This document shows, piece by piece, positions 32,438-52,239 of a stretch of 64,000 bases of DNA. This stretch comes from Saprospiraceae bacterium (GTDB lineage: Bacteria > Bacteroidota > Bacteroidia > Chitinophagales > Saprospiraceae), in NCBI GenBank assembly GCA_013140975.1, contig JABFRV010000153.1, forward strand, positions 169 through 64,168, given 5' to 3'. A model generated the notes under the pieces. That model was not told the origin of the DNA, searched no databases, and was given only the letters and a program-made list of their open reading frames with translations. Made by a program: the position numbers and the translations under genes. Numbering within the stretch: the stretch's first letter is position 1; each line of letters begins with the position of its first letter.

Positions 32438-32612
32438 TATTATTTTAAACAAGAGTAATTAGAAGTTTAATACATGTAAAGAGTATTATCGTTTTCGTGA
32501 TATAAACTTCCTTTAGAGTAATTTAATGTGATTTATCCATCGTGAATAATAAACACATAAATAATTGAATATGCCTAATGGAATTTTGTGCACTAAAACC
32601 ATAAATCTTTTT

Positions 32613-32620
32613 TATGTTTG
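32613..32620 (+). promoter_or_regulatory. candidate -7 box (TATGTTTG) inside the track-extended N-terminus of the regulator gene
   Basis: 7 nt upstream of ATG 32628 (MIKTARIFLFILCACILAHSQ). This would imply a very short or absent leader. Confidence 0.3.
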
Positions 32621-32627
32621 TACTTTA

Positions 32628-36584: not shown

Positions 36585-36666
36585 CCACCAAATCCAATTG
36601 CCAACTATTCAATAGTCATTAGTCAAATGCAAACTGGCTACTGCTTATTGTCAACTTCATTCCTCA

Positions 36667-36903
36667 TTGACATTTGCCAAATTGCCGCGAAGCGAATTGC
36701 AAAATTGCCAAATTGCCCCGCAGGGAATCGCCCATTGCCCATTGCAAAATTGCCAAATTGCCCCGCAGGGAATCGCCAAATTGCCGCGAAGCGAATTGCC
36801 AAATTGCGGCGTAGCTAATTGCTCTCGTTGCCAGACGAGAATTGCGTCCGCAGGACAATTGCCCATTGCCCATTGCCCATTGCCAAATTGCCAAATTGCC
36901 CAA
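36667..36903. repeat. tandem word repeat (A/C)ATTGCC interspersed with short GC hairpins
   Basis: aaattgcc and cattgcc units are interrupted by gcGAAgc, cccGCAggg, ctcgtTGCCAGacgag and gtccGCAggac. Open in several frames on both strands, which produces the overlapping track ORFs. Confidence 0.85.
36784..36861. repeat. left copy of the 78-bp direct repeat bracketing the four-helix-bundle gene
   Basis: Aligns by eye with 37343-37420 at a constant offset of 559 bp with 4 mismatches in 78. Confidence 0.85.
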
Positions 36904-37269
36904 TCAATACATCCCAGGATTCATCAAAGCATGCCCAAGCAATTTTCCAATGTCTTTATTTTGACTTTCCAATTCTTTAAACATATCATCCTTAATATAA
37001 TTGCACTTCAATGCAAAATCCAACCATACCAATGTCTCAGAATTTTCTGCATCACAATCCGTCAGCTTCAAAATAAAATTAGCTGGATACCTTTTCTTCC
37101 TTTGAGCCTCTGCATAGTTTGCACACACACTTCTCGAACTCCTTCTAATTTGATCAGTTAAAGAGTAAGTCTCTTCTTTAGGAAATGACTTAGTCATCTC
37201 AAAAACATCCTTAGCTTGCTTAAAAGCTTTTTTATACAATGTAGTTTCCTGAAAAGTATATTCTGCCAT
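36904..37269 (-). CDS. four-helix-bundle protein (23S rRNA intervening-sequence protein family)
   Basis: YKKAFKQAKDVFEMTKSFPKEETYSLTDQIRRSSRSVCANYAEA..R....F..KL..C..E..ET..WL is the classic signature of this family. Start at MAEY (37269) fits the -7 box better than 37278. Confidence 0.85.
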   Translation of the reverse strand: MAEYTFQETTLYKKAFKQAKDVFEMTKSFPKEETYSLTDQIRRSSRSVCANYAEAQRKKRYPANFILKLTDCDAENSETLVWLDFALKCNYIKDDMFKELESQNKDIGKLLGHALMNPGMY

Positions 37270-37285
37270 AAATTTCAATTTTCAA

Positions 37286-37293
37286 CAAACCTA
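37286..37293 (-). promoter_or_regulatory. candidate -7 box (TAGGTTTG on minus strand) for the four-helix-bundle gene
   Basis: Plus strand reads caaaccta, 16 nt upstream of ATG 37269. Confidence 0.4.
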
Positions 37294-37342
37294 ATAAGTT
37301 TTACAAAACCACCAAATAGCCCATCACAAAATTACCAAATAG

Positions 37343-37420
37343 CCCCGAAGCGAATTGCCAAATTGCGGCGAAGCCAATTGCTCTCGTCGCCAGACGAGAA
37401 TTGCGTCCGCAGGACAATTG
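37343..37420. repeat. right copy of the 78-bp direct repeat
   Basis: See 36784-36861. Preceded by degenerate words (aaaattaccaaatagcc). Confidence 0.85.
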
Positions 37421-37596
37421 TCCAAAAAATCCACCTTTTTGCACGATTTGTCCACCTCCTCACCGCCCCCATGCCCGCATCTTTGCTATCGAAATTCAAC
37501 CTAAGAATTTAGAGGTAGGCGAGCTTATGCTTAAGACACCAATACGACTTATGGTTTGAAGAAAACAAATTTTATAATTTTTAAAATAAACGAATT

Positions 37597-39423
37597 ATGA
37601 ACAATTTTATCAAATCATGTCTCTTTGCTTTTTTAAGCATGCTTACACTAACTGTAGTAGCACAAAACCGAACCATCAGTATCCAGAGCACATTTAAAGA
37701 CATCTCCGGTAAACCTATACCGGATGGCGACCAAGAAGTAACTTTTAGGTTATATAAAGAAGATGGTAGCCCAATGTGGGATGAAACTACTATGGTTGAC
37801 GTACAATCGGGTGTTTTTAGTCACTTGCTAGGTAGTGCCAATCCCTTCAATGATCTAGGCATTTTTAGTAACAAACTTTTCTTGGGAATCAAACCTTTGG
37901 GACAACCTGAACTTGTTCCTCGAACAGAACTAACCTACGCACCTTATGCCATGGCAGTTAATTCAATTGCAGGTCTGGATAAATCAGCATCGTTTGAGAA
38001 TATAGGTGGACACCCAGCTTTGAAAGTAACTTCGACTCTTACTCCTAAAGACATTAGAAGTTCAGCTAATAATTATGGTGATAATGACACAGGGATAAAC
38101 TTCCCAGATGATGGTGAGATGGATTTAATTTGCAATGGTATACCAGTAATGAAGACTTTTCACAATACACAAAACTTTGGAGTTCATTTTCCACAACATG
38201 TGGGTTTTGGACCAGATGCTAATAACTCTTCATTACTTATTGGAATTGGCGATAATAATACAGGAATTAGTCATCCTGCAGAAGATGATCTGCGTATAGT
38301 AACAAATGGCGCTGATAGGATTACAATTAAACCTGATGGAAAAGTCGGTATAGGGACTAGCAGCCCTAATATCAGTTTAGCAATAGGTGATCATGATACA
38401 GGGATTAAACATCTAGCTGATGGAGCTTTAGCTTTTCAAACAAATGGGACTGAAAGACTAAGAATATTTGATAATGGTAGAATAAAAATAGGAGGCGATT
38501 CAGGAAATAATGGAGCAGTTGCGCCTTTAGAGGTTGACATTGAAGGTAATACTACTAATTCATCATATAGATCAGTTGTTAACAATACCGCTGATTGGAA
38601 ACAAATGTGGCATGGAACTCCAGGATGTAATGCCTTTGGTTTTATTGAAACTAAATGTGGAGCGTCAGGTGGTAACTTTGGAAATGTCGCAATTGGTGTC
38701 AAAGGCGATGTAGTGGTAAATGGATCTGTTGTATCTGCTACTGGAATTTCTTGGTCAGATAAGAGGATAAAAAATATATTAGGCATATCAAATGCAAAAA
38801 ATGATTTAGATCTAATAAAGAAAATTGAAATCACAGATTATGAGCATATTGATAAGGTATTTAATGATCGAAGAGTGATAAAGAAAGTTATTGCTCAGCA
38901 AGTAGAGTCTTTACTTCCAAATGTTGTATCTTCCACTAGAAGAGTGATCCCAAGTGTTTATGAAAATGCAACGAGAGTAGATTTTGAGAAAGGAATACTT
39001 ACAATAAGCACTAACAAAAAACATGAATTTATTGCAGGCGACATGGTAGAACTAAAATGTTTTGAAGGTCGTAACTATAGAGAGATAGAAGTGATAGAAG
39101 TTAAAGATGAATATACATTTACCGTCAAAGCGGAAACTGATCCTAAAGAAGTGTTTGTCTATGGCAAGTATGTAGATGACTTCAGAGCTGTGGATTACGA
39201 TGCAATTGCCATGCTCAATGTATCAGCTACACAAGAACTCATCCGCAAAGTGGAAGCACTTGAAGCTGCTAATGCTTTACTTAATAAATCAAATGACTCC
39301 TTACTCAAGGAAAATAAAATGTTGAAAGATGCTACTTCTAGCATCGAAGCGAGATTACAAAAATTAGAAAGTTTGTCTGTAAAATCTGAAGCTTCGAATT
39401 CAGTATCAGCTGTAGTAAAATAG
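37597..39423 (+). CDS. secreted tail-fibre-domain protein with Peptidase_S74 intramolecular chaperone domain and C-terminal coiled coil
   Basis: Signal peptide MNNFIKSCLFAFLSMLTLTVVAQ. Three GD..TGI......L...TNG..R..I...G.(V/I).IG repeats (about nt 38075-38500). WSDKRIKN (Ser387, nt 38755-38757) matches the S-D-x-R-x-K autoprocessing motif. Heptad-like tail EALEAANALLNKSNDSLLKENKMLKD. Confidence 0.75.
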   Translation: MNNFIKSCLFAFLSMLTLTVVAQNRTISIQSTFKDISGKPIPDGDQEVTFRLYKEDGSPMWDETTMVDVQSGVFSHLLGSANPFNDLGIFSNKLFLGIKPLGQPELVPRTELTYAPYAMAVNSIAGLDKSASFENIGGHPALKVTSTLTPKDIRSSANNYGDNDTGINFPDDGEMDLICNGIPVMKTFHNTQNFGVHFPQHVGFGPDANNSSLLIGIGDNNTGISHPAEDDLRIVTNGADRITIKPDGKVGIGTSSPNISLAIGDHDTGIKHLADGALAFQTNGTERLRIFDNGRIKIGGDSGNNGAVAPLEVDIEGNTTNSSYRSVVNNTADWKQMWHGTPGCNAFGFIETKCGASGGNFGNVAIGVKGDVVVNGSVVSATGISWSDKRIKNILGISNAKNDLDLIKKIEITDYEHIDKVFNDRRVIKKVIAQQVESLLPNVVSSTRRVIPSVYENATRVDFEKGILTISTNKKHEFIAGDMVELKCFEGRNYREIEVIEVKDEYTFTVKAETDPKEVFVYGKYVDDFRAVDYDAIAMLNVSATQELIRKVEALEAANALLNKSNDSLLKENKMLKDATSSIEARLQKLESLSVKSEASNSVSAVVK

Positions 39424-39465
39424 GATTTAGTTTTTATTATTTCATCTTCATAAGACATTTTTATC

Positions 39466-42400
39466 ATGAATAAATGTATAAAATATCTATTCGCATGCTA
39501 TATGTGTATGGTAGTCATAAATACAGTTAGGGCTCAAGATTGTGTTCCTGTACCTGGTGCACCTTCTTCCATTGTTGGTGATAGAGTAGTAATGGCATAT
39601 GGTGTAACTACCAAGGCTGTAAACTCTAGGCGATTATCAAGAGTAATCATTGGCCAGCCGGCATTAGGACAAAGCAACAACGGTAAACGTAATATTGATT
39701 TAGGTTATTATGGACAGTTTTTATTACCGCCTCTTCCACCTACGATTTCCGCAACGCAAGGAGAATTATTTGACAGAATTCAACTCAATTGGACACCAAA
39801 CCCACTGGGATCTCAAGCAACAGGTGGCTATAAGATTTATAGAGATAGCGTTTTTCTTACAACTGTTGATGCCAAAACTAATAGCTATAATGACTTCAAT
39901 ATCATAGCAGGAAGGCCATATTCGTATGAAGTGGTGGGTGTCAATGACTTTGGTGAAGCTTTCTCAGGAAAAGCATTAGGTTTTCTAGTTCCAAATGGTG
40001 TGGTCACTGGTTTGGTAGAAACCATAAATGGTCAAGCAGTACCTGGGGCAATGGTAACCCTTGATCCAATGCAAGGCTTTGCAGCAAAATTTGGAGATCA
40101 AGATGGTGCAGGTGTTATAGGTGATAACACCAACAATTTTCTTCCTAATTCTGAATTTTCATGGTCCATCTCATTTTGGATAAAAACAGAGTCTATTCCC
40201 GGTCAAGCGAGTTTATTGAAACTTGGTGGCACGGATATCGACATTAGAGCCCAATATAATCTTGGTGAGGGTATAGCTTTTATCTCAAATAATGAAGGTA
40301 CAATGACAATCGACACCCTTGGATACAAATTTCCAGATTCAACCAAAAATAAATGGCACCATATTACTCTCACCAATGTAGCGAGTCCATCCGATCTTAA
40401 GAGTCTTTATGTTGATGGAGTTTTGGTTGCCCAGAAAAACTTCTGGTCACTCACAACTAATGCAAATTCTCTGGATTTAGGCAGTAGAGCAGGCAATGGT
40501 GGTTGGGTAGGATCAATAGATGAGCTTCGATTTTATAAAAGAGAAATAAAAGAATTTGAAATCCCAGAAATAATGAATGGCACAGCTGGATCCTCCACTC
40601 CTGATCTTACCCACTACTGGAAGATGGATGAAGAGTTGGGCACAAAATCATTTGACATCGTAAAAAGGCAGGTCTTATATTTTTGTGGAGCAAAATTTGA
40701 TGCGGATAGACCACCGGTAGCTACGTCTGGAGTAACAAATGCACGAGGATATTACAAGATAGAAGGGGTCAACTATGGTGACGGTACTACTTTTATTGCT
40801 ACCCCACATAAATCACACAATAACCATGTGTCTTTAGAATTTAAGTCAGCGGAACAAGACAGAGTAATACTAGATACTATCCGTACCGGCTCTAGAGGTA
40901 CCATCGAAACTTGGGTAAGGAGCAGCTCTATTCCCAATTCAGGATATCAATCAATATTGTTCAGACCTAATAATGTCAATATTGTTGTCCGAAACAATAA
41001 TGGTGTAAAAGAATGGGGTGTGCAGTATTTTGCCGAACATTGGTTTGGTACTTTGCCAATCGGATTTAATCATCTAGCTATAACAATAGACAGTTCTGGT
41101 CCTAATGAATCTACAATCAAGGGGTTTCTTAATGGAAATTATTTATCCGGTAGAGACAAAGTTTTCAATTTTAATTATGCTGATCAGAATGCAACTAAAT
41201 GGTATTTAGGTGCTCAAGATAATATTAACTATTTCAATGGCTTCATAGACGAAGTAGCCATTTATGACAGAATTCTCGATCCAAGTGAGATTCTGTCTCA
41301 TGCATCGAGTGATAGGAGTGTTGCAGTGCTAGGTTTGATAGCATATTTTCCATTGGATGAGATTGGTGATATGTTCGTTAATAATATAGGCTCTTTAAGA
41401 ACCCCGCAAGTTAACATCCAAGGAGCAAGTTGGTCAAACATGGCGCCACCACAGTCAAAGATTGATCATGTATTTATACCATCAACCAGACAAGTGACAC
41501 TAAATCCTAGCAATACTTCGGTAGATAGGATTGACTTTACAGACAGAAGCACAATTGCAGTATCAGGTTTTGTTAGATTTGAGGGTACAGATTGTTTTCA
41601 GGATCAGGTGGAGATACTTGTGAATGGCAAATCATTTGAACCCCAAATATTTACTAAACAAGATGGTAGATTTGTTATAGATTTTAATCCTGGTACATCG
41701 GCGATTCTTACACCCAATTACAAAGATCACACATTCGTACCCGCTAACTATACCATTAGTAATATTCTAATACCCAAAGCAGGTGTTTTATTTAATAATA
41801 CAGTTGAGAGAAGAGTCAAAGGAGTGTTACGTGGTGGCAATGCTAAATGCAAAGGTGTAATAACCGATTCCTCGACTACCGCAATGGTGCGACTGCGTAC
41901 AGCAAATGGCTGCTTTGATAAAACTTATACTGTTAACACAGATGATGGGTATTATGAATTCGAAGGCGTGCCGCCAATTAATTCTTTGACGGTAAGTGTA
42001 TTCGAACACGATATTCCATTTATTTACGATCAGTTTCAAGCAAAGGGTGGGTCAACCATCGATTTGTCTGAAAGAGACACGGTAATAAATTTTGAGTACC
42101 ACCCTGAACCACAAGTTAGATTTGATAATATTGCCGATTTTCAAATTGATGGGTGTCAAACTTTAGTATTAAAAAAAGGCGATACTGAAACTTTTAAATT
42201 TTCATTAAATGAGGTTTACAATTTCATTCAAGGTAATACTAAATATTGCTCTCTTGATACCGCAAATTTTAGAATTATTAATGGTTTTGCTGACACTACA
42301 ATCGATCTTACATTGAGGGATACAAACATATTGGAATATAAATTCAAAGTAGGTGATCCAAATCCATCAGCTCCGCATACTAAAGCTTTTCAAATAATAG

Positions 42401-45400
42401 CTACAACTGTTGATAATAATAGAAGTGAATTTTTTTCCAGTGGGGTTGTAACTGGAAAAAGATCGAAAGATGCAGCTTTTACTACGGTTACACCAGACAT
42501 ACCTATGCATATATTGCACGACCCTCCAGGAGATGGTAGTTATTCATATCTGGAAAAAAATGAGACAATATGCAATAACATATCATTTTCGACTGATAGT
42601 TCATTTGCTATAGGAACTAGAATCTATTTTGATTTCGCTCCAGATTACGAATATAATACATTTGCTGGCTTACCTCAGATATATTTGGTTTCAACTGCAG
42701 GACCCGATTTAACAGCTACTGCAGACTATCACAAAACATCTGATAATGGTTTTGAATATTGCTTGACAGTAAACCAACGATTATCAACAAGCGATAATGA
42801 CCTCATTGTGGGATCTCAGGGTGGGGACATCTTTATGGGCGGCGCATTAAATATAATTTATGGGCTTGTAGATATAGTAACTTTCGACAGCTGTAATGCA
42901 AAATCAGAACAAGTTACACTTGTCACTCCTGGTAATTTTGCGACCACTTTTATTTATTCAGAATGGCATATATTAAATTCTGTTTTACCAGGTATAGAAC
43001 TTGTGTTGAAAGATACAACACTCGTAGATTCTCTAAAAACCAAATATAGAGCATCCATTACTTCTTGGAAAAAAATTCTTGAGAATAATAATATACGTAA
43101 GAAAAAAGCAACGCCTCTAAAAAATATATCTTTTTCAGCGGGAACAGAATATGAATATTCAATGACTAGTGATACTACAACTTATTCTTCGAGTTCAAAA
43201 GACACAACTATATCACATGGAGAAGATATTGCTTTTGATATATTTATTGGAGGTGTTGGATTTGGCACACATTTGATTACGGGTCAAGATAAATATAGGT
43301 CAACAGCTAATGGGAAAGACACTATAAGGAGTGTAACTACTGGCTATGTGCTTAAGGATGATGATGAATTAGATGCATTTTCAGTTGATATAGGTATCGA
43401 CACTGTATACAAGACTCCAACTTTTAATACAAAGATTGGCCAGTCGAGTTGCCCTTGGGAACCGAATACTGCCAAAAGAGAAGGGGTTTTCCTTGAATCT
43501 GTCAATGGTCCTATTAGAACTGATGTTCCAGCTAATGAAGCTGCTACATATACTTTCAGGATGCACAACATAAGTGCAACCAATGAGACATGGACTTATG
43601 CTTTTACTGCAGGACCGGAAAGCAATGCATATGGAGCAAAAATATATTGCAACGGAGCACCAATGAATCAGATACAGTGGTATGCCATTCCGTGGGGAGA
43701 GAACATAGAAGTCACCGTAGAGGTAGAGAAAGGTGCAAAAGAATACGACTATGATAGTTTGGAAATTGTTCTATATTCTGCATGTGAAGATCAAAGAGCC
43801 AATGACCTTGGTATATTGCCAGATACAGCAAAGAACTTATATTCTGCTGTCTATATTTCGGCACACTTTATAAGACCTTGCAGCGAAGTAAATATTACAA
43901 GTCCGCGAGAAGGATGGGTGCTTAATGGATTGGACAGCGATACAATTGATGTTACTCTTTCAGGATATAATCGCGAATCTAATTTCAAATCTATCCAATT
44001 GCAATATAGAAATGTCAATGGAGATGGATCTTGGATAAGTATTGGACCTGAAATGTTTAATACAATGAAGAGTGATACAACTCCTCCTAAATCACCGGGC
44101 GATACTTTGAGACCATTATTCACAAGAGTTATGTGGATAGTCCCATCAGATTTAGAAGATGGAGAATATGAGTTGAGAGCAGTGGCCAATTGTTCCGGCG
44201 ATGCTGCGAATAAACCTGGATTCTCGCAACTCATAAAAGGCCGCATTGATCGTCAACCTCCTACTATTATGGGTGTACCACAACCATCTGATGGAGTATA
44301 TCATGTAGGAGATGAAATTTCATTTACTTTCAATCAACACATCAAATGTAATAAGCTTATCCAGGCGGCAGGAGAACCGGGTGCAAGACCTCCGTTTAAC
44401 GTAGGTTTATTTGATGCAGTTACTGGCACACTGATAGATGTTGATATCACGTGTTATGAAAACAAAATCATCATCGATCCTAACTTCCAAAATGAATACT
44501 TCGAAAATAGAATTCTCAAAGCTGAACTTCATAACATCGAGGACCTCGTAGGAAATAAGATGGACGAAACAAAATGGGAATTCTATGTAGATCGTAATGA
44601 ATTAGCATGGCTATCGGATTCTATTTCCTTGACAAAATATGATGATGAAACAAAGTCAATCACTGCTAAAATTCATAATCGCGGTGGTTATCCTGTCCCT
44701 TATACCTTAATAGATATTCCTTCATGGATACATGCAGTACCTAGTTCCGGTACCTTGGTAGCTAATGAAATAGAAGAAGTCACCTTCACTGTAAAAGATG
44801 ACATACCTATTGGTACTTATTTTGATTCTATCAAATTGCAAACAGTTACAGGCGCTAATCCATTCTTTATGGGAGGAACGGAAGCAATAATAATGAAGAC
44901 AAGAATTATTTGTCGTCCTCCGGCATGGGTAATAGATCCTGAGGCTTTTGATCCATCCGCGTTTGAATACTCTATGAACTTCATCGTAGAATTAGACATT
45001 GAAGGTGATCTTTCGGCCGATGTGGAAGACATAGTTGGAGCTTATGTTGGTGGTGAATTGAGAGGAGTTGCCAAGCTGAAATACAAACCAGGTATTGGAT
45101 ATCTAGCTTTCCTTACCGTATATAGCGATAGCGCAGATCTAGATACTATAGAATTCCAAATTTGGGATGCCTCTACATGTCAATTATATTCTGATATACT
45201 TGAATCCTTCAAGTTTGAAGACAATACGATAATAGGAAGTACGGATAGTCTTATGACTTTACATACAAGTGGTAAAATATTGAGAAAGATATATATCCAA
45301 CCAGGATGGAACTGGATATCTATGAATCTCAATTTGATAGATTCGAGTGTAAACGGTGCATTAGAAAGCTTAACTAATCCTCAAGGTGCAACAATTAAAA

Positions 45401-46503
45401 GTCAAGTTCCCTTTAGTCAATATTTTACTAATCTGAATCAATGGTTCGGTAGCCTGGACACTTTAGGTCCGCAGCATATGTACCAATACTTCAGCCAGGA
45501 ATATGACTCGATATCTATGGTGGGCCATCATATCGACAGTCTTGCAATACCAATTAAAGTTGGTTGGAATTGGATTGGTTATATTCCTAATCATAAGCTT
45601 CCGGTTGGAACTGCATTGGCAACTCTGAATCCACAACACGGAGACCTGATTAAAGGAAGACTCACATTTGCCGTATATGACAATAGCATTGGTTGGGTTG
45701 GGAATCTTACTTATATGAATGAACCACACGGGTACTTGTATAAAAGCTCTGTCTTGGATACTTTAATGTATCCACCTTCTGGTTCTAATTTTACTGGAAG
45801 TACGCAATCAGCATTGACGAGTAAAGAAAAGACAAAGCACCAGTTAGAGATGTCAAAAATGATGACTGAAGTTCAGCAATCTTTATGGAAGGTTGATCCT
45901 TCAAAGTTTGAACATACAATGAATTTCATAGCCTTTGTAAAAGATAAGGATGACAATCATCTTTTGCAAAAAGAGGATGAAATAGGAGTATTCTCAAATG
46001 GTGAATTGCGGGGTAGCAGTCACCCTATATTAATTCCGCAATTGGGGCAATACATTTTATTTATGACAGTGTATAGTAATGTTCAGAATGAAAAACTTCA
46101 GTTAAAGTATCATAGTGTTAAAGATGATAAAATCTATGACGTCTTAGAAGAATATAGTTTTAGGATAAATCAGATTATTGGTACTGCTGATCAACCGGAA
46201 GATTTCCACATTGAAAATAAATCTACGATAGTAGAAGATGTGTTGACTCATCAATTAGTCATCTATCCTAATCCATTCAGCGAAGGCATTTATCTTAAAA
46301 ACACCAAGGGTGTACTGAGAGATGTAAACATGAATATTCGCAATGCTGATGGGCAATTGGTGTATAGCAAAACGATTGATTATCTTTCTAATGGAATGCA
46401 ACTCTTGTGGAAACCGGATTCCGGAATACCAAGTGGTTCTTATATCATAGAAATGGTAACAGACGAAACTGTTTTACATAAAAATGTAATTTACATTAAA
46501 TAG
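39466..46503 (+). CDS. giant (2345 aa) T9SS-sorted surface protein with FN3, CarboxypepD_reg-like and two LamG/ConA-like domains
   Basis: Signal peptide; FN3-like LNWTPNP...YKIYRD...YSYEVVGVN. LamG_3-like WSISFWIKTE..WHHITLT..LYVDGVLVA..GSIDELRFYKR, and a second copy IETWVRSS..NHLAITID..GFIDEVAIYDRIL. Two copies of a roughly 110-aa module near the C-terminus. Por-type tail VIYPNPFSEG...GSYIIEMV...VIYIK. Confidence 0.8.
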   Translation: MNKCIKYLFACYMCMVVINTVRAQDCVPVPGAPSSIVGDRVVMAYGVTTKAVNSRRLSRVIIGQPALGQSNNGKRNIDLGYYGQFLLPPLPPTISATQGELFDRIQLNWTPNPLGSQATGGYKIYRDSVFLTTVDAKTNSYNDFNIIAGRPYSYEVVGVNDFGEAFSGKALGFLVPNGVVTGLVETINGQAVPGAMVTLDPMQGFAAKFGDQDGAGVIGDNTNNFLPNSEFSWSISFWIKTESIPGQASLLKLGGTDIDIRAQYNLGEGIAFISNNEGTMTIDTLGYKFPDSTKNKWHHITLTNVASPSDLKSLYVDGVLVAQKNFWSLTTNANSLDLGSRAGNGGWVGSIDELRFYKREIKEFEIPEIMNGTAGSSTPDLTHYWKMDEELGTKSFDIVKRQVLYFCGAKFDADRPPVATSGVTNARGYYKIEGVNYGDGTTFIATPHKSHNNHVSLEFKSAEQDRVILDTIRTGSRGTIETWVRSSSIPNSGYQSILFRPNNVNIVVRNNNGVKEWGVQYFAEHWFGTLPIGFNHLAITIDSSGPNESTIKGFLNGNYLSGRDKVFNFNYADQNATKWYLGAQDNINYFNGFIDEVAIYDRILDPSEILSHASSDRSVAVLGLIAYFPLDEIGDMFVNNIGSLRTPQVNIQGASWSNMAPPQSKIDHVFIPSTRQVTLNPSNTSVDRIDFTDRSTIAVSGFVRFEGTDCFQDQVEILVNGKSFEPQIFTKQDGRFVIDFNPGTSAILTPNYKDHTFVPANYTISNILIPKAGVLFNNTVERRVKGVLRGGNAKCKGVITDSSTTAMVRLRTANGCFDKTYTVNTDDGYYEFEGVPPINSLTVSVFEHDIPFIYDQFQAKGGSTIDLSERDTVINFEYHPEPQVRFDNIADFQIDGCQTLVLKKGDTETFKFSLNEVYNFIQGNTKYCSLDTANFRIINGFADTTIDLTLRDTNILEYKFKVGDPNPSAPHTKAFQIIATTVDNNRSEFFSSGVVTGKRSKDAAFTTVTPDIPMHILHDPPGDGSYSYLEKNETICNNISFSTDSSFAIGTRIYFDFAPDYEYNTFAGLPQIYLVSTAGPDLTATADYHKTSDNGFEYCLTVNQRLSTSDNDLIVGSQGGDIFMGGALNIIYGLVDIVTFDSCNAKSEQVTLVTPGNFATTFIYSEWHILNSVLPGIELVLKDTTLVDSLKTKYRASITSWKKILENNNIRKKKATPLKNISFSAGTEYEYSMTSDTTTYSSSSKDTTISHGEDIAFDIFIGGVGFGTHLITGQDKYRSTANGKDTIRSVTTGYVLKDDDELDAFSVDIGIDTVYKTPTFNTKIGQSSCPWEPNTAKREGVFLESVNGPIRTDVPANEAATYTFRMHNISATNETWTYAFTAGPESNAYGAKIYCNGAPMNQIQWYAIPWGENIEVTVEVEKGAKEYDYDSLEIVLYSACEDQRANDLGILPDTAKNLYSAVYISAHFIRPCSEVNITSPREGWVLNGLDSDTIDVTLSGYNRESNFKSIQLQYRNVNGDGSWISIGPEMFNTMKSDTTPPKSPGDTLRPLFTRVMWIVPSDLEDGEYELRAVANCSGDAANKPGFSQLIKGRIDRQPPTIMGVPQPSDGVYHVGDEISFTFNQHIKCNKLIQAAGEPGARPPFNVGLFDAVTGTLIDVDITCYENKIIIDPNFQNEYFENRILKAELHNIEDLVGNKMDETKWEFYVDRNELAWLSDSISLTKYDDETKSITAKIHNRGGYPVPYTLIDIPSWIHAVPSSGTLVANEIEEVTFTVKDDIPIGTYFDSIKLQTVTGANPFFMGGTEAIIMKTRIICRPPAWVIDPEAFDPSAFEYSMNFIVELDIEGDLSADVEDIVGAYVGGELRGVAKLKYKPGIGYLAFLTVYSDSADLDTIEFQIWDASTCQLYSDILESFKFEDNTIIGSTDSLMTLHTSGKILRKIYIQPGWNWISMNLNLIDSSVNGALESLTNPQGATIKSQVPFSQYFTNLNQWFGSLDTLGPQHMYQYFSQEYDSISMVGHHIDSLAIPIKVGWNWIGYIPNHKLPVGTALATLNPQHGDLIKGRLTFAVYDNSIGWVGNLTYMNEPHGYLYKSSVLDTLMYPPSGSNFTGSTQSALTSKEKTKHQLEMSKMMTEVQQSLWKVDPSKFEHTMNFIAFVKDKDDNHLLQKEDEIGVFSNGELRGSSHPILIPQLGQYILFMTVYSNVQNEKLQLKYHSVKDDKIYDVLEEYSFRINQIIGTADQPEDFHIENKSTIVEDVLTHQLVIYPNPFSEGIYLKNTKGVLRDVNMNIRNADGQLVYSKTIDYLSNGMQLLWKPDSGIPSGSYIIEMVTDETVLHKNVIYIK

Positions 46504-46506
46504 GAT

Positions 46507-47592
46507 ATGAAAATGTCTGTACAACTCATATCAAACATTATATCTGCGCCAAGAAATTGGGGCAGATATAATGCCTTTTTTATTATAAATTTATTGTTTT
46601 TGTTAAAACTGCTGGGTCAGGGATCAGGATGGTCTGCACCAATTTCCGCACAGTATGGAAGATGTGCGACAATGACCGCATTGGTCTATTTTGAAGATAC
46701 CTTAATTACAGATGAAAATGATCAAGTAGCTATTTTTGCCGGCACAGAATTACGGGGATTGGCTTCTAGAGTAATGATTGCTGGAGATCCTTATTACTTT
46801 ATGAGCATTTATAGCAATAATACTTCAGAATATATGACCTTGAAGTATTACAATTCCAATTTGGATTTGATTTTCATTTCTAGTATTCCATTTTTAGTTA
46901 AATCCGGGCGGATCTATGGTAATATTGAAAATCCACATGAGTTATTTTTTTATGAAGACAATGTAACACCCATTAAACTGGGGCCAATACCAAATCAAAT
47001 GGGTTTGGAGAATTGTCTTATGTCGCCAATCTACCTATCTGATTATCTTAAACAACAAGATACTTTTGGTACGAATTGGTATTATTTTAATAATCCCAAC
47101 CTGCAAGTAACATTGGTCGGCGACACACTTTCCATAACAGGTGTTCCCAACTTTAGCGGTACAACCAATCTAACTGTATCGGCAACATCACAAGCACCAG
47201 GAAATCCAACTGATACAACTGAAATAATAATTACTCTGAATCCTCAAATTGCAGCACCGTTATTTGGAATTATTCCGGATCAAGGTATTCAGAAAGGAGA
47301 TACATTTGAGTTATTCGATTTGAGTCTTTTAGAAGTTGGATATAGCGGTAACCATTTAGGTTTTAACTATCTGCCAATTGTAGAAGAAAGCGATAATCCA
47401 ATCAGTCCGCCTTCATGGTCTCCGGGAACTTCTTACAACTACAACATGACGATCACTGCCAAGGTAAATTTTACACCGAACTATCAGTTTAACCATGTAG
47501 ATGACATACTTGGCGCATTTATAAATGGACAGCTAACAGGAACTGCTACTCAGAATGCATCGACAGGTTTGTACCTTTTTGTCATTGGGTAG
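46507..47592 (+). CDS. N-terminal part of a frameshift-split surface protein (module copies C and D, He_PIG/cadherin-like Ig repeats)
   Basis: Starts 3 nt after the giant gene's stop. Hydrophobic leader; P.IPNQ.. and IIPDQGIQKGDTFELFDL Ig-like motifs. Ends at TAG 47590-47592 in the middle of a conserved module. Confidence 0.6.
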   Translation: MKMSVQLISNIISAPRNWGRYNAFFIINLLFLLKLLGQGSGWSAPISAQYGRCATMTALVYFEDTLITDENDQVAIFAGTELRGLASRVMIAGDPYYFMSIYSNNTSEYMTLKYYNSNLDLIFISSIPFLVKSGRIYGNIENPHELFFYEDNVTPIKLGPIPNQMGLENCLMSPIYLSDYLKQQDTFGTNWYYFNNPNLQVTLVGDTLSITGVPNFSGTTNLTVSATSQAPGNPTDTTEIIITLNPQIAAPLFGIIPDQGIQKGDTFELFDLSLLEVGYSGNHLGFNYLPIVEESDNPISPPSWSPGTSYNYNMTITAKVNFTPNYQFNHVDDILGAFINGQLTGTATQNASTGLYLFVIG

Positions 47593-50530
47593 TAATGTAG
47601 TGAAAGAAACAGTTGAATTAAGATTTTATAGCGGAGAAAAAAAAGAAATACTTATCTGCCAAGCCAAAATTCCATTCTTGCCATCTCAAATATTTGGCAA
47701 GATTGAAAATCCTTACCAAGTTGAACTTTCACCTGTAGTACCTAAATTTTTACTCAATGATACTATTAAGTATGATATCAAAGACACCTCATTTATTGGA
47801 GAGTTAGAATATATTTTTGTTGCCTATGATTCTATTTATCCGCATTGTCTTTCGGATAGCTTTACAACTAAGATCTGTATCGTAGATGACGCTGCAAATC
47901 TAGATACTTTCTATTTAGATGCTGATGGAGATGGATTTGGCGATCTAGCTAATAGTGTCAGATCTTGTACTCTGCCAATTGGTTATGTAACCAATAGCGA
48001 TGATATATGTCCTAATGCAGATCAAGAGACGATTAGTAATTTTGATGAGAATACCTGCAACTGTGATTTAGGGTATTTTCAAAATACAACTTCAACTTAT
48101 GGTCAAACAATAATTACAAGTTGTTCTCCTTGTCCTGCTGGATCTTATTGTCCTAATGGTATATCGCCAATATTATGTCCACCCGGCAATTACTCAGAAG
48201 TTGAAGGATCAATTTCTTGTTTAAGTTGCCCTGCTGGTACTTCTAATCCAAATTCAGGAGCCGTATCTTGTGACTCATGCGATATCAATTCTTATACTTC
48301 AACTACAGGTTCTGTTTTCTGCGATCAATGTCCTGAAGGCTTTTATACAGTGTCAGTAGGATCTACTTCGTGTTTAGAATGTCCTGTGATTACTTTTACT
48401 CATATTGCTTATATGCCATGTGAAGAGTTTGGATATATTAACTTAAGCAATATTTCCGGAGGTAATGGCCCATATATGTATTCCATAAATAACGGTACCA
48501 ATTATTATAGCAGCACTTCTTTTGTAAACCTTTTAGCAGGTGTTTATCAAGTAATAGTAAAGGATAAATACGGATGTAAAAGCATTCCTGTTATAGTAAA
48601 TCTAAATGACGTTCAAGATCCAACAATAGCATGCCCAGCGGATATTATTGTAAATTCGGATCCGAATCTATGTAGCAAGACCGTCACTTATACTACACCC
48701 GTTGGAACTGATAACTGTCCTGGTTCTAGTACTGTACAACTTAATGGTCTGCCTTCCGGATCTACATTCAATACAGGAATTACTACGAATATATTTAAAG
48801 TTACGGACGGTTCAGGAAGTACGAATACTTGTAGTTTTACAATTCTGGTAAAAGAATCAGTCTTGCCGGAATTAACTTGTCCATCTAACATAGAATTAGA
48901 ATCTGACTCTGCTCAGTGTTCAACAATTATAAATTATGAAGTGATTGCATCGGACAACTGCCCCGGATTGATTGTTGGTTATTCTCAATTAAGTGGGTCA
49001 GCATTTCCGGTAGGAACTACAACAGTGTCTGTATTGGCTACTGATGCAAGTGATAATTCTTCATCTTGTTCTTTCACAATTACGATTAATGATTCTGAAG
49101 ATCCGGTAGTTAGCTGTCCTGATATTAATAAGATATTGGACATTGGTGCTGACACAGCGATTGTAAATTTAAGCATTAATGCAACGGACAATTGCAGCAA
49201 TATAACAACTACTTATATTCCTGTCAGTGGTTCTACATTCTTATTTGGAACTACTGCTGTAGAAGCAATCGTTACAGATGATGCAGGAAATAGCACAACT
49301 TGTAATTTTAATGTTCATGTGATTGATCTGGAACCACCAGTAGCACTCTGTCCAACGGAAGATGTTGAGTTAGATGCAATTGAAGGTCAATGCTTTGGTG
49401 AAGCGGAATATTCTACTTCACATTCAGATAATGTTGAAGTTGATCATTCTTATTTTGAGCCTTTTACTTCAAATTCAAGATATGATGTTGGAACAACCTT
49501 AGTCACTTTTACGGTAGTAGATATTAGCGGCAATAGTTCTTCATGTACATTTAATGTTGTAGTTTATGACACTCAGGATCCAACTTTAAATTGTCCCGAT
49601 ACAATGAAGATTCAATTAGATTCAGGTACTTGTAATAAAACAATATGGTATACTTCTACTGCGAGTGATAATTGTAGTGATCCAACAGTTGTTTACAGTC
49701 CTGTGAATGGAAGTATACTTGGAATTGGCAATACTGTTGTTAACGGAACAGTTACTGATAGTTCCGGTAATACTGCGACATGTATTTTTGTCGTAAGTAT
49801 AAAGGCTGCGGCAGAAATCTGTAACAATAATATTGATGATGACTGTGATGGCCAGACAGACGAAGGATGTAACGACACTGATGGAGATGGTATTGATAAC
49901 TCTGTAGATAATTGCAAGACAGTTCATAATCCAGGTCAGGAAGATTCTGATTGTGATGGAGTAGGGAATGTTTGCGATGTTTGCCCGGGAGGAGATGATA
50001 AGATAGACAATGATAATAATGGATTGCCGGATTGCAAAAACAAACCAGCTAACTATTCCAGTCTGCCAGCAAGTTGGAAATGTGGAACTAATAAAGCTTA
50101 TGTATGTCATATTGTTGGTAATTACAAATCACTTTGTATAAATTGGAGTACAGTTCAAGCACATTTAAATCATGGAGATTATCTAGGGCTTTGTAATCAA
50201 GCGAAGTGTGGTAATTTGTCAAAAGGCGAAACTGAAATTCCAGTTATGGAATTACTGAGCGAGAATTATGAAGAAGAATTATCTATTGAAATTACTCCCA
50301 ATCCAAATGATGGAAATTTTGTTCTGCACCTGGATGGACTTCAACAATATAATGGAATTCTAGAGATAATAAATATTGCAGGCAAGGTAATTTATTATTC
50401 TGAAGTAAATGAAGCTGAAAATCATGTACACCTCAATATTGATTTAAGAAACTTGGTAGATGGCAATTACTTTTTAAAGTATAAGGACAAAGAATATGTT
50501 TTTAATAAGTTGATTGTGATTAAGAAATAG
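47555..50530 (+). CDS. C-terminal part of the split protein: metal-binding-like repeat, ephrin-receptor-like Cys-rich repeats, 5 HYR repeats, TSP3-like Ca-binding repeats, T9SS tail
   Basis: DADGDGFGD...C..P.GYV.N.DDIC. CSPCPAGSYCPNG/CLSCPAGTSNP/CDQCPEGFY (about 48058-48390). Five C-P-x-(D/N)-I...C...V.Y..P...DNC....V......SG..F..G.T.V...A.D..GN...C.F.I.V units (about 48617-49805). DTDGDGIDNSVDNC...NPGQEDSDCDGVGNVCDVC (about 49835-50035). Tail ITPNPNDGNF...GNYFLKY...LIVIKK. The ATG at 47555 is probably not a real start. Confidence 0.75.
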   Translation: MHRQVCTFLSLGSNVVKETVELRFYSGEKKEILICQAKIPFLPSQIFGKIENPYQVELSPVVPKFLLNDTIKYDIKDTSFIGELEYIFVAYDSIYPHCLSDSFTTKICIVDDAANLDTFYLDADGDGFGDLANSVRSCTLPIGYVTNSDDICPNADQETISNFDENTCNCDLGYFQNTTSTYGQTIITSCSPCPAGSYCPNGISPILCPPGNYSEVEGSISCLSCPAGTSNPNSGAVSCDSCDINSYTSTTGSVFCDQCPEGFYTVSVGSTSCLECPVITFTHIAYMPCEEFGYINLSNISGGNGPYMYSINNGTNYYSSTSFVNLLAGVYQVIVKDKYGCKSIPVIVNLNDVQDPTIACPADIIVNSDPNLCSKTVTYTTPVGTDNCPGSSTVQLNGLPSGSTFNTGITTNIFKVTDGSGSTNTCSFTILVKESVLPELTCPSNIELESDSAQCSTIINYEVIASDNCPGLIVGYSQLSGSAFPVGTTTVSVLATDASDNSSSCSFTITINDSEDPVVSCPDINKILDIGADTAIVNLSINATDNCSNITTTYIPVSGSTFLFGTTAVEAIVTDDAGNSTTCNFNVHVIDLEPPVALCPTEDVELDAIEGQCFGEAEYSTSHSDNVEVDHSYFEPFTSNSRYDVGTTLVTFTVVDISGNSSSCTFNVVVYDTQDPTLNCPDTMKIQLDSGTCNKTIWYTSTASDNCSDPTVVYSPVNGSILGIGNTVVNGTVTDSSGNTATCIFVVSIKAAAEICNNNIDDDCDGQTDEGCNDTDGDGIDNSVDNCKTVHNPGQEDSDCDGVGNVCDVCPGGDDKIDNDNNGLPDCKNKPANYSSLPASWKCGTNKAYVCHIVGNYKSLCINWSTVQAHLNHGDYLGLCNQAKCGNLSKGETEIPVMELLSENYEEELSIEITPNPNDGNFVLHLDGLQQYNGILEIINIAGKVIYYSEVNEAENHVHLNIDLRNLVDGNYFLKYKDKEYVFNKLIVIKK
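47587..47592 (+). other. frame-change site GGG-TAG (1 extra nt relative to an intact reading frame)
   Basis: gtc att ggg tag in frame 1. Reading ggt agt aat gta gtg from 47588 continues the module as ..VIGSNVV... Confidence 0.7.
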
Positions 50531-50895
50531 TCATAAACTTGTAATTAAGGCACAAATAGTAAGCTTCCCAGCACAATCAATTGATCATGGCAGTTTAGTA
50601 TTTAGCTGAAAATTGTTGGACCATTATTGTCAACAATACATATACAAATCATGAATTATGTCCTTCACTTTTATGTCAAATAGTTTCATGAAGAAATATA
50701 AATTTATCCTTTATCTTATCAAGGTATAGCTTAAATCAAGATTTATACTTTTTCCACTATATTTTTAAGAATCAATTTATCAGAATAGATAGACTTTGAA
50801 TTTTATTCATGAATGGTTGGTTAAGTTCATAAAGTTTATATCATAACAATTTGTAAATCCCCTTTATTATCGCATAAAAATGAACCATCTAATTA

Positions 50896-50903
50896 TATCT
50901 TTG
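50896..50903 (+). promoter_or_regulatory. candidate -7 box (TATCTTTG)
   Basis: 22 nt upstream of the ahcY ATG at 50926. Confidence 0.45.
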
Positions 50904-50925
50904 TATTAAATATATATTAAATCAT

Positions 50926-52239
50926 ATGGAATTAGTTGCGAATCAACTTAAATACAAAGTAAAAGATATATCACTGGCTGATTGGGGTCGTAAAGAGATC
51001 GAATTGGCAGAGGCAGAAATGCCGGGACTTATGAGTCTTAGAGAAGAATATGGTAAATCCAAGCCACTCGCTGGCGCAAGAGTTGCTGGTTGTCTTCACA
51101 TGACCATCCAGACTGCGGTACTTATTGAGACATTGATAGAATTAGGGGCTGAAGTGAGCTGGTCTTCATGTAATATTTTCTCTACACAAGATCATGCAGC
51201 GTCTGCAATTGCAGCAGCCGGTATTCCGGTTTTTGCCTGGAAAGGAATGAATAATGAAGAGTTTGACTGGTGTATCGAGCAGACTCTGTTCGCGTTTAAA
51301 GATGGAAAACCGTTGAATATGATTCTGGATGATGGCGGGGATCTTACCAACATGGTTTTAGACAAATATCCTGAATTGGTCCAAGGTATACGTGGTATTT
51401 CAGAGGAAACAACAACAGGCGTTCATCGTCTTTATGAAAGAGTAAACAAAGGAACGCTTCCACTTCCTGTAATCAATATTAATGATTCAGTTACAAAGTC
51501 AAAATTTGATAACAAGTACGGATGTAAAGAATCTTGCGTAGATGCAATACGTCGTGCCACTGATATTATGATGGCTGGTAAAGTAGCCGTTGTTGCAGGA
51601 TATGGTGATGTTGGTAAAGGATCAGCCGCTTCTCTGCGAGGAGCAGGTTGCAGAGTAATCGTAACTGAGATTGATCCTATCTGTGCTTTACAAGCCGCAA
51701 TGGATGGATTTCAGGTAATGAAGATGGAGAATGCGGCAAAACTTGCAAATATTATTGTTACAGCTACCGGAAATAAAGACATTATTTCTGCCAAGCATTT
51801 CAAGTCAATGAAAGATAAGGCTATTGTATGCAATATTGGTCACTTTGACAATGAGATTGACGTAGCCTGGTTAAATAATAATCATGGAAACTCAAAAGTA
51901 GAAATTAAACCTCAGGTTGATAAATACACCATCGATGGAAAAGATATTCTTCTTCTTGCTGAAGGAAGATTAGTAAATCTTGGTTGCGCTACCGGTCATC
52001 CTTCTTTCGTGATGTCTAATTCTTTTACCAATCAAGTGTTGGCACAATTGGAGTTATGGAAGAATGCCGACAAGTACGAAAATAAAGTATATATGCTTCC
52101 TAAGCATCTAGATGAAAAAGTTGCAAGATTGCATCTTTCAAAAATTGGTGTTGAACTTGAAGAGCTAACTCATGATCAAGCGGTATACATTGGTGTTACA
52201 ACCACAGGCCCATTCAAGCCAGACTATTACAGATATTAA
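50926..52239 (+). CDS. ahcY: adenosylhomocysteinase
   Basis: 437 aa. [34 protein letters not shown] site [16 protein letters not shown] and a C-terminal ..[10 protein letters not shown]. Confidence 0.95.

Follow-up and report, generated by a model that had tools for sequence, protein, structure and literature searches.

Near-obligate pairing of MAT-type fibre genes with giant type IX secretion substrate genes in Saprospiraceae: a candidate regulated surface appendage

Peptidase_S74 (S74) domains assist the folding of fibre trimers and then release themselves by cutting before a serine residue. The closest described relatives of the locus analyzed here are the mosaic adhesive trimer (MAT) fibres of Bdellovibrio, 21 of which have been reported, in S74 and non-S74 groups with a common N-terminal beta domain (Caulton 2024, Nat Microbiol, PMC10769870). 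The same study demonstrated for Bd3182 that S74 autocleavage follows trimer folding, stated that the surface partner of the Bdellovibrio MAT N-terminal domain is unknown, and already lists a Saprospiraceae member in its Supplementary Table S3. We describe here a cassette of three genes, encoding a MAT-type fibre (gene 1), a giant type IX secretion system (T9SS) substrate (gene 2) and a T9SS mosaic protein (gene 3), in a Saprospiraceae metagenome-assembled genome (MAG; GCA_013140975.1, contig JABFRV010000153.1). The window is the whole stretch of this contig that was analyzed (64,000 nt). The component types, namely MAT/S74 fibres, T9SS giants and hybrid two-component systems (HTCS), are known, while the near-obligate pairing of fibre and giant, the multi-copy and sensor-linked organization, and the giant and module families appear to be new. 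The functions proposed below are deduced from genome comparisons and predicted structures.

Wastewater sludge, lakes and the sea harbour abundant Saprospiraceae, which attach to or prey on other microbes; to our knowledge, the surface machinery of these bacteria is uncharacterized save for the grappling hook. The cassette fibres resemble MAT fibres in several respects: they are phage-like fibres encoded by cells, with a Sec leader, a beta-rich N-terminal domain of ~100-130 amino acids (aa), shaft repeats of the G-x-V-G-I-G-T-x-x-P type and S74 (SDxxxK) or non-S74 tips, and they occur as many paralogues per genome with swapped tips, the trimeric state being a prediction here. They differ in lying directly upstream of a gene for a giant T9SS substrate, often together with a sensor and a module-bearing protein, whereas no such partner has been reported in Bdellovibrio. 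In addition, the fibre of the window is short (~364 aa when mature, versus ~1,000 aa). The giant, for its part, can be compared with the gliding adhesin SprB and with GhpA, the grappling-hook protein of Aureispira and thus also from Saprospiraceae, as all three are very large Sec and T9SS substrates made mostly of beta-sandwiches and ending in a C-terminal sorting domain (CTD). However, GhpA has 5,898 aa and 52 immunoglobulin (Ig) repeats, forms heptamers and is accompanied by PorP/PorE-like genes, whereas the giant has 2,345 aa, LamG domains, a unique central domain and a fibre partner, with no PorP/PorE neighbours (gene 3 and then ahcY are the next genes downstream). Size and architecture thus rule out that the giant is a GhpA or grappling-hook protein.

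In the window, four plus-strand open reading frames (ORFs) make up the cassette: ORF1 (37597-39423), ORF2 (39466-46503), ORF3 (46507-47592) and ORF4 (47555-50530). The first two are separated by 42 nt and the next two by 3 nt, and ORF3 and ORF4 overlap by 38 nt. This tight, co-directional packing had been noted in a first-pass annotation made from the sequence alone, and it holds, but the four-gene unit claimed there is in fact a unit of three genes, ORF3 and ORF4 being parts of a single gene. Likewise, all three proteins have Sec leaders, as claimed, but the 'leader' assigned to ORF4 is not a signal peptide: because ORF3 and ORF4 form one gene, it is internal sequence of gene 3. A promoter and terminator scan of positions 36400-51000 returned site counts at the level of shuffled sequence and nothing usable between the genes, the sigma-70 consensus being unsuited to Bacteroidota.

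Evidence that these genes belong together comes from their conserved neighbourhood, a test which the first-pass annotation had proposed and which gave a positive answer. Starting from ORF1 homologues, we found an ORF2 homologue 31-56 nt downstream in four of four genomic contexts, one of which is a plasmid-like contig with two fibre genes in tandem. Starting from ORF2 homologues, all three contexts showed an upstream gene of 430-487 aa sharing only the N-terminal domain (N-domain) with ORF1, and a downstream gene 3 orthologue of ~700 aa together with a nearby Reg_prop/Y_Y_Y sensor gene. The species-representative genomes of GTDB contain at least 437 matches to the giant, and 79 loci were analyzed with custom profiles. 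The 5' end of the giant gene is directly preceded by a co-directional gene with a MAT-like N-domain at 62 of the 64 testable loci, the two exceptions being a giant that is split and a locus where the gap measures 523 nt. A single fibre gene is present at fifty loci, two lie in tandem at seven and three at five. The genes thus behave as one conserved unit.

The first-pass annotation had asked whether S74 fibres accompany the giant, but fibre tips at the GTDB loci are of the S74 type in 12 cases and non-S74 in 67; S74 is thus a minority tip, and it is the N-domain, the only fibre part common to all cassettes, that forms the giant's conserved partner. Identities between N-domains and between giants are correlated across 67 cassettes (r = 0.56; the highest value among permutations was 0.19). 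On the other side of the giant, a module-bearing gene (646-2,481 aa) follows the 3' end at 28 of 48 loci, one 459-aa fragment of a frameshifted giant having been excluded.

The giant family is almost entirely confined to Saprospiraceae and Lewinellaceae MAGs and is present in multiple copies per genome, and we regard the cassette as specific to Saprospirales. For example, one MAG carries at least eight cassettes on separate contigs, and a MAG labelled Aureispira carries at least three. Despite this wide distribution, the cassette has no annotation as a unit, and no description of it as such was found in the open-access literature and bioRxiv. The first-pass remark that no described system of this composition was known therefore stands for the cassette, but not for its fibre, which belongs to the described MAT family.

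Several loci depart from the simple arrangement. At loci L021, L033, L034, L044, L049, L051 and L063, the first fibre-giant cassette is immediately followed by a second one in the same orientation, without an intervening gene 3. Locus L005 (262-17631) is a divergent cassette with two tandem S74 fibre genes and a giant 30% identical to ORF2; as its contig has genes for replication (Rep3) and partition (ParA), plasmids may also transfer cassettes. Finally, contigs filed under 'Thermoanaerobaculia' and 'Halioglobus' MAGs also carry cassettes (L038, L043, L081 and L071), and are probably binning contaminants because cassettes are typical of Saprospiraceae.

Gene 1 (37597-39423, plus strand) encodes a 608-aa fibre of the S74 subtype, and NCBI names an identical protein 'tail fiber domain-containing protein'. 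Its Sec signal peptide spans aa 1-22, with cleavage between VVA and QN (the leader, MNNFIKSCLFAFLSMLTLTVVA followed by QN, can be read straight from the sequence), and no T9SS CTD was detected in it with Pfam and NCBIfam. An alignment of 19 full-length relatives shows two conserved parts, aa 23-125 and aa 387-608, on either side of a hypervariable middle. The first is a beta-rich N-domain (37663-37971), modelled with a predicted local distance difference test score (pLDDT) above 90. Its sole NCBIfam match is NF053851 (Bdello_MAT_N), with an E-value of 0.004 for ORF1 itself; the same family is found in 10 of the 19 full-length relatives and in 20 of 30 cassette N-domains (best E-value 1.5e-11). 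We read the ORF1 N-domain as a remote MAT relative outside the Bdellovibrio subfamily, because all these scores (at most ~40 bits) are under the curated cut-off of 60 bits.

The variable shaft and tip region (aa ~130-386) contains three shaft repeats (aa 164-181, 221-254 and 267-300; 38086-38496) with the pattern D/N-T-G-I ... G-[KR]-[VI]-x-I-G. Solved structures of Bdellovibrio bacteriovorus MAT fibres are 8ond, 8ojn, 8onc and 8oml. The ORF1 family profile matches Bd2133 (8ond) at 2.6e-15 over three stretches, 8ojn at 2e-8, and 8oml; these alignments cover the G-R-V-G-I-G-T-x-x-P-x-x-x-L-H-V repeats, in agreement with the beta-helical shaft repeats and V-G-x-G-x-x-P-x-x-x-L capping motif of MAT fibres. 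ORF1 is thus a member of the described MAT fibre family. The profile also matches the MyRF ICA (7dc3) at 6e-11 and the tip of a phage long tail fibre (6f45), and ORF1 matches 11 PHROG tail-fibre families and one virion-structural-protein family, down to 4.6e-16.

The second conserved part is the S74 chaperone/autoprotease domain (aa 387-608; 38755-39420). It starts with S387-D-K-R-I-K392, encoded at 38755-38772, which corresponds to the S-D-x-R-x-K motif and whose S387, D388, R390 and K392 are invariant in the 19 relatives and in 94 aligned ORF1 homologues. Although ORF1 scores just below the gathering threshold of Pfam Peptidase_S74 (E-value 6.5e-4; 20.4 bits versus 22), a precomputed table places PF13884 in most ORF1 homologues. 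The domain carries a small beta-barrel insertion (aa ~465-514), seen as a weak E1_FCCH match, and a predicted long C-terminal helix (aa 534-600). The fibre repeats and S-D-x-R-x-K motif of the first-pass annotation, which also named a coiled coil, have thus been recovered, together with a predicted C-terminal helix. An AlphaFold monomer model of ORF1 has a mean pLDDT of 76, with values of 84-98 in the S74 region; in Foldseek searches, it matches 7dc3 with a target-normalized template modelling (TM) score of 0.69-0.73 and a root-mean-square deviation of 3.5-4.5 Å, and 3gw6 with a probability of 1.0. The C-terminus of ORF1 is therefore predicted to fold like the intramolecular chaperones of MyRF and endosialidase, which goes against the refuting condition named in the first-pass annotation, a lack of chaperone fold around the S74-like motif. 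The resemblance to MyRF ICA (7dc3) and to the phage endosialidase and T5 L-shaped tail-fibre chaperones (3gw6, 4uw8) extends to the Ser-Lys motif, the predicted fold and the long C-terminal helix. ORF1 differs from them in being a cellular protein with a signal peptide and in its beta-barrel insertion. Its S74 domain is predicted to trimerize the protein and then to cleave itself off before S387.

Gene 2 (39466-46503, plus strand; 2,345 aa) encodes the giant and defines a large and remarkably uniform family. More than 300 homologues exist, and the best 120 measure 2,271-2,477 aa (all but three within 2,313-2,383 aa) and are 41-50% identical; those with a named host come nearly all from Saprospiraceae or Lewinellaceae MAGs. 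In an almost gap-free alignment of 60 homologues, 392 positions are at least 98% conserved, a pattern that would fit a machine part or an enzyme rather than a mosaic adhesin.

The N-terminal part of the giant, predicted to be distal (39727-41310), comprises an FN3-like domain (aa 88-170), which PHROG 1696 matches at aa 88-166, and LamG/concanavalin-like domains (aa ~217-366 and ~450-615), where Laminin_G_3 matches two stretches (E-value 2.7e-25). Searched against PDB sequences, the family profile finds the LamG-like 5hon and 4qvs and, weakly, pentraxin 9lad (E-value 0.062, above 1e-3), and the matches of the whole-giant profile are limited to the LamG parts. The central region (aa ~985-1480; 42418-43905) has no family assigned. 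It contains two motifs that are invariant across the giant family, D-P-P-G-D-G (42520-42537) and G-Q-S-S-C-P-W-E (43438-43461). The first could possibly serve in Asp-Pro self-processing, and the second could have a thioester-like or cross-linking role. An AlphaFold model of aa 940-1600 (pLDDT 79.7; predicted TM score 0.72) shows beta-sandwiches around a distinctive domain in which a beta-hairpin of 20 residues is combined with a pair of long helices and with two loops that are disordered and poorly conserved. Searched against PDB and BFVD with Foldseek, this model matched only generic strings of tandem Ig/FN3 domains (query-normalized TM score at most 0.21), among them complement, alpha-2-macroglobulin and integrin strings. 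We do not take these matches as homology of the central region to alpha-2-macroglobulin, as there is no thioester domain.

The C-terminal part (44899-46221), which would be close to the cell, contains two copies of a 110-aa module (44899-45279 and 45877-46221). Between them, at 45283-45765, lie two repeats of ~85 aa with an invariant G-W-N-W-I (aa 1947-1951 and 2033-2037), to which no family match was assigned. The giant ends in a T9SS type A CTD (46261-46491; 25.2 bits with TIGR04183, whose cut-off is 23, and 25.6 bits with Pfam Por_Secre_tail). Type A CTD cargo, as known from P. gingivalis and F. johnsoniae, leaves through the T9SS in folded form, loses its CTD and is usually linked to surface lipopolysaccharide.

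Gene 3 (46507-50530, plus strand) is, from orthologue alignment, a single gene split by a frameshift into ORF3 and ORF4. At three related loci, one protein of 698-728 aa aligns with aa 20-361 of ORF3 and then with aa 8-150 of ORF4. The frameshift lies at a run of five T (47576-47580) followed by G, where the sequence has one surplus base compared with intact orthologues. Skipping one base at 47576-47581 gives a frame of 1,340 aa, with a junction (..GLYLF-SLGS..) similar to those of the orthologues (..GLFFL-SVGS.. and ..GLFNL-SLGS..). A programmed frameshift was ruled out, since the orthologues are uninterrupted; the surplus base is either a sequencing error or a real mutation. The repaired frame corrects the public annotation, as the NCBI record has only the 991-aa ORF4, under the name of HYR domain protein (NOT38309.1).

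The repaired protein carries one module copy at 46627-46956 and a second one, across the frameshift, at 47419-47752. Further downstream, an adhesin-like part (48056-50023) contains three Cys-rich Ephrin_rec_like repeats (~48056-48388), five HYR domains (~48608-49822; 3e-47) and thrombospondin-type calcium-binding repeats (49847-50023), followed by a T9SS type A CTD (50291-50521; TIGR04183, 30.9 bits versus a cut-off of 23; Pfam, 34.9 bits). Searches with Pfam and NCBIfam have thus borne out the LamG, HYR and calcium-binding repeats announced for the downstream ORFs, and both sorting tails, those of ORF2 and ORF4, score above the TIGR04183 cut-off. However, contrary to what had been supposed, the HYR mosaic does not belong to the conserved unit: only the N-terminal ~500 aa of gene 3 are kept in orthologues, and the remainder is specific to the present locus. 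An orthologue from a Lewinellaceae MAG (L009, 17059-19227) combines matches to Cohesin (2.8e-6), Dockerin_1 (1.8e-4), HYR and Cadherin; the distal part of gene 3 is therefore highly variable.

The module shared by genes 2 and 3 was described in the first-pass annotation as private to this locus. It is real, with two copies in each protein and the motif ..E/D-x-[IV]-[GA]-x-[FY]-x-x-x-E-[LIV]-R-G .. Y-x-x-F-x-T-[VI]-Y-[SGA]-N .., but it is far from private, occurring in more than 5,000 protein clusters. A profile built from three of the window copies matches 5,041 cluster representatives at an E-value of 1e-3 or better, including 2,542 at 1e-10 or better. The proteins concerned measure 330-4,500 aa and carry 2-9 copies each, with a T9SS tail in four of the six examined. 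As comparisons with Pfam and PDB sequences gave no match better than chance, the profile searches mark the module as a widespread, unannotated domain family.

Upstream of the cassette, a complete HTCS is encoded at 32565-36584 on the plus strand, as the first-pass annotation had reported. It combines Reg_prop, Y_Y_Y, HisKA, HATPase_c, Response_reg and AraC-type HTH domains in one protein, all six above Pfam cut-offs, and its position fits the regulatory link that had been proposed. At 18 of 35 loci, a Reg_prop/Y_Y_Y sensor gene lies upstream of the first fibre gene at a distance of no more than 3 kb (13 of them co-oriented), versus 1 of 18 loci with such a gene within 3 kb downstream; in other cassettes, LytTR or GerE regulators are instead the ones coupled to this type of sensor. 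The adjacent sensor is thus a probable regulator of cassette expression, as judged from its position. The HTCS of polysaccharide-utilization loci have the same full domain order, but those loci differ from the window, whose genes scanned with Pfam and NCBIfam (several ORFs were left unscanned) include no SusC/SusD pair or glycoside hydrolase.

The interval between sensor and cassette has features of its own. A 164-aa plus-strand ORF (36667-37161) was rejected as a cassette gene: it is spurious, the real gene being on the minus strand. This gene (36904-37278) encodes a four-helix-bundle protein of the 23S rRNA intervening-sequence/Avd-like type (PF05635, 3e-28; TIGR02436, 3e-27). It is flanked by a 124-nt direct repeat of 85% identity (36742-36865 and 37301-37424), and many short repeats of the AAATTGCC type surround it (36660-36900 and 37300-37424). 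Gene and repeats resemble a small inserted element, which sets the sensor ~1 kb apart from the cassette.

Related fibres are also found outside the family of cassettes described above. A more distant N-domain fibre gene is followed by a gene for a LamG/T9SS giant (30% identical to ORF2), then by one for a T9SS mosaic protein. A Flavobacteriales fibre has a shaft and S74 domain like those of ORF1, without the N-domain and without a giant as neighbour. Finally, an Akkermansiaceae MAG and two related contigs provide a second cassette type, entirely without annotation (L090, 3628-18421; L092, 5927-21313; L093, 7425-21421), which consists, in this order, of genes for a ~285-aa protein (80-91% identical between loci), a 560-1,160-aa protein, a fibre with both N-domain and S74, and a giant. 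This giant has 2,650-2,935 aa, with no Pfam domain and no T9SS tail, and no homology to ORF2 was found: BLASTP returned no match and hhalign gave a probability of 0.2. The fibre-then-giant order thus recurs with unrelated giants, since the Akkermansiaceae-type giant shows no similarity to ORF2, and we regard this recurrence as the strongest argument, albeit an indirect one, for a joint function of the two genes. In L092, a His_kinase/LytTR pair is located upstream of the cassette.

In our reading, the cassette encodes a surface appendage under regulation, with the giant as anchor or partner of the fibre, and from the comparisons above we give this reading a probability of about 0.5. The mechanism that we infer covers trimerization, cleavage, surface anchoring, docking, target and regulation. 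The gene 1 fibre would be exported by Sec; its S74 chaperone would drive trimerization and then cut itself off before S387, leaving a mature fibre (aa 23-386) made of the conserved N-domain and the variable shaft and tip. By analogy with type A CTD cargo, the giant would be tethered to the cell surface through its C-terminus, with its FN3/LamG end pointing outward and its module-rich end at the membrane. The N-domain of the fibre would dock on the giant, which would anchor, and perhaps also carry across the outer membrane, a fibre that has no CTD. The gene 3 product would be an accessory T9SS mosaic adhesin, with the same 110-aa module as the part of the giant that would lie closest to the cell. 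The result would be a composite appendage whose tip is exchangeable between S74 and non-S74 types, and a genome with many cassettes would thereby have a repertoire with which to recognize different targets (prey, host filaments or particles, for instance), with expression probably under the control of the adjacent Reg_prop/Y_Y_Y sensor.

More tentatively, the giant may serve specifically as the docking site of MAT-type fibres, and perhaps as their export carrier, with an analogous device built around an unrelated giant in an Akkermansiaceae MAG and related contigs. It is also possible that the cassettes build surface structures that have been imaged in Saprospiraceae but remain unassigned, for example the 'antennae' seen above the Aureispira type VI secretion system. 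If the giant is such a dock, it would be the kind of surface partner bound by the MAT N-domain, for which none is reported in Bdellovibrio, and the cassette would represent a new class of appendage, composite, T9SS-anchored and with exchangeable tips, serving in its many copies per genome as a target-recognition repertoire of Saprospiraceae. The cassette would suggest a way for Bacteroidota to expose a trimeric fibre lacking a T9SS signal, and it offers a testable candidate for the anchor of MAT-type fibres. In addition, the analysis delineates three large families, namely the giant, the 110-aa module and the second-type giant, for which Pfam and PDB give matches only in the LamG, FN3-like and CTD parts of ORF2.

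Several observations weigh against this reading. Contact between fibre and giant is deduced from gene order, and genes duplicated as a pair would show the co-divergence of N-domain and giant in any case. The fibre has no T9SS CTD that would account for its passage across the outer membrane. The central 500 aa of the giant have no recognizable fold relative, and a function other than scaffolding is conceivable. About 40% of cassettes lack gene 3, and about half of the loci lack the sensor. In the window itself, gene 3 is frameshifted; should the surplus base be real, the cassette copy described here could be partly defective. Finally, the homologue set consists of MAGs throughout.

Part of these observations would be accommodated if the locus were a co-regulated adhesin island, in which the fibre, the giant and the gene 3 product would be independent adhesins, surface-bound or secreted, co-expressed and duplicated as a block, each with its own ligands and without forming a complex. 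We consider this possible, if rather doubtful. Every protein has its own export signal, as the island predicts, and both gene 3 and the sensor are optional. Sharing the module does not imply contact either, because it occurs in thousands of otherwise unrelated T9SS proteins, and the mirror-tree correlation could result from co-duplication alone. However, a fixed fibre-giant order with short gaps, adjacency at 62 of 64 loci and paralogues that are 41-50% identical make an association much tighter than that of usual islands. Moreover, the N-domain alone is conserved while the tips are swapped, which is the pattern expected of an attachment domain, and the same order recurs with an unrelated giant in the Akkermansiaceae MAG and the two related contigs.

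The giant could also be something other than an anchor, either an effector, membrane-inserting or enzymatic, whose target is picked by the fibre, or a factor for fibre export or assembly; the cassette would then be a contact-dependent attack or secretion module. Enzyme-like conservation, with 392 near-invariant positions, a uniform length and motifs of invariant Cys, Asp and Pro, is what such a role would predict, as is a central domain with a predicted hairpin, two long helices and two disordered loops but no fold relative. The fibre has no outer-membrane export signal of its own, and Saprospiraceae include contact-dependent predators (bioRxiv 10.1101/2024.01.29.577165). Nevertheless, no catalytic or toxin family was found in ORF2 with Pfam, NCBIfam or PDB, the giant is predicted to consist mostly of beta-sandwich strings, typical of stalks, and no immunity-like gene is conserved in the cassette, so that we regard this possibility as unlikely. 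A phage-derived element (prophage remnant, tailocin or gene-transfer-agent fibre module) is very improbable: ORF1 does match PHROG tail-fibre families and has an S74 chaperone typical of phage spikes, but PHROG matches are confined to ORF1 and the FN3-like stretch of ORF2, each of the three proteins starts with a Sec signal peptide and two of them end in a T9SS CTD, the cassettes are multi-copy in cellular contexts (with one divergent copy on the Rep3/ParA contig) without adjacent phage structural genes, and the 64-kb window contains no phage gene other than the ORF1 fibre, its flanks being, in agreement with the first-pass annotation, housekeeping genes (MetRS, CrcB, glycosyltransferase, AhcY, DsbD and similar).

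One further gene in the window concerns the T9SS. On the minus strand, at 20105-25108, a 1,667-aa protein matches NF052324 ('putative type IX secretion system sortase PorU2') with 620 bits, versus a cut-off of 450, and also contains Peptidase_C25. This PorU2-type protein is a paralogue of the T9SS sortase, encoded 12 kb upstream of two T9SS cargo genes.

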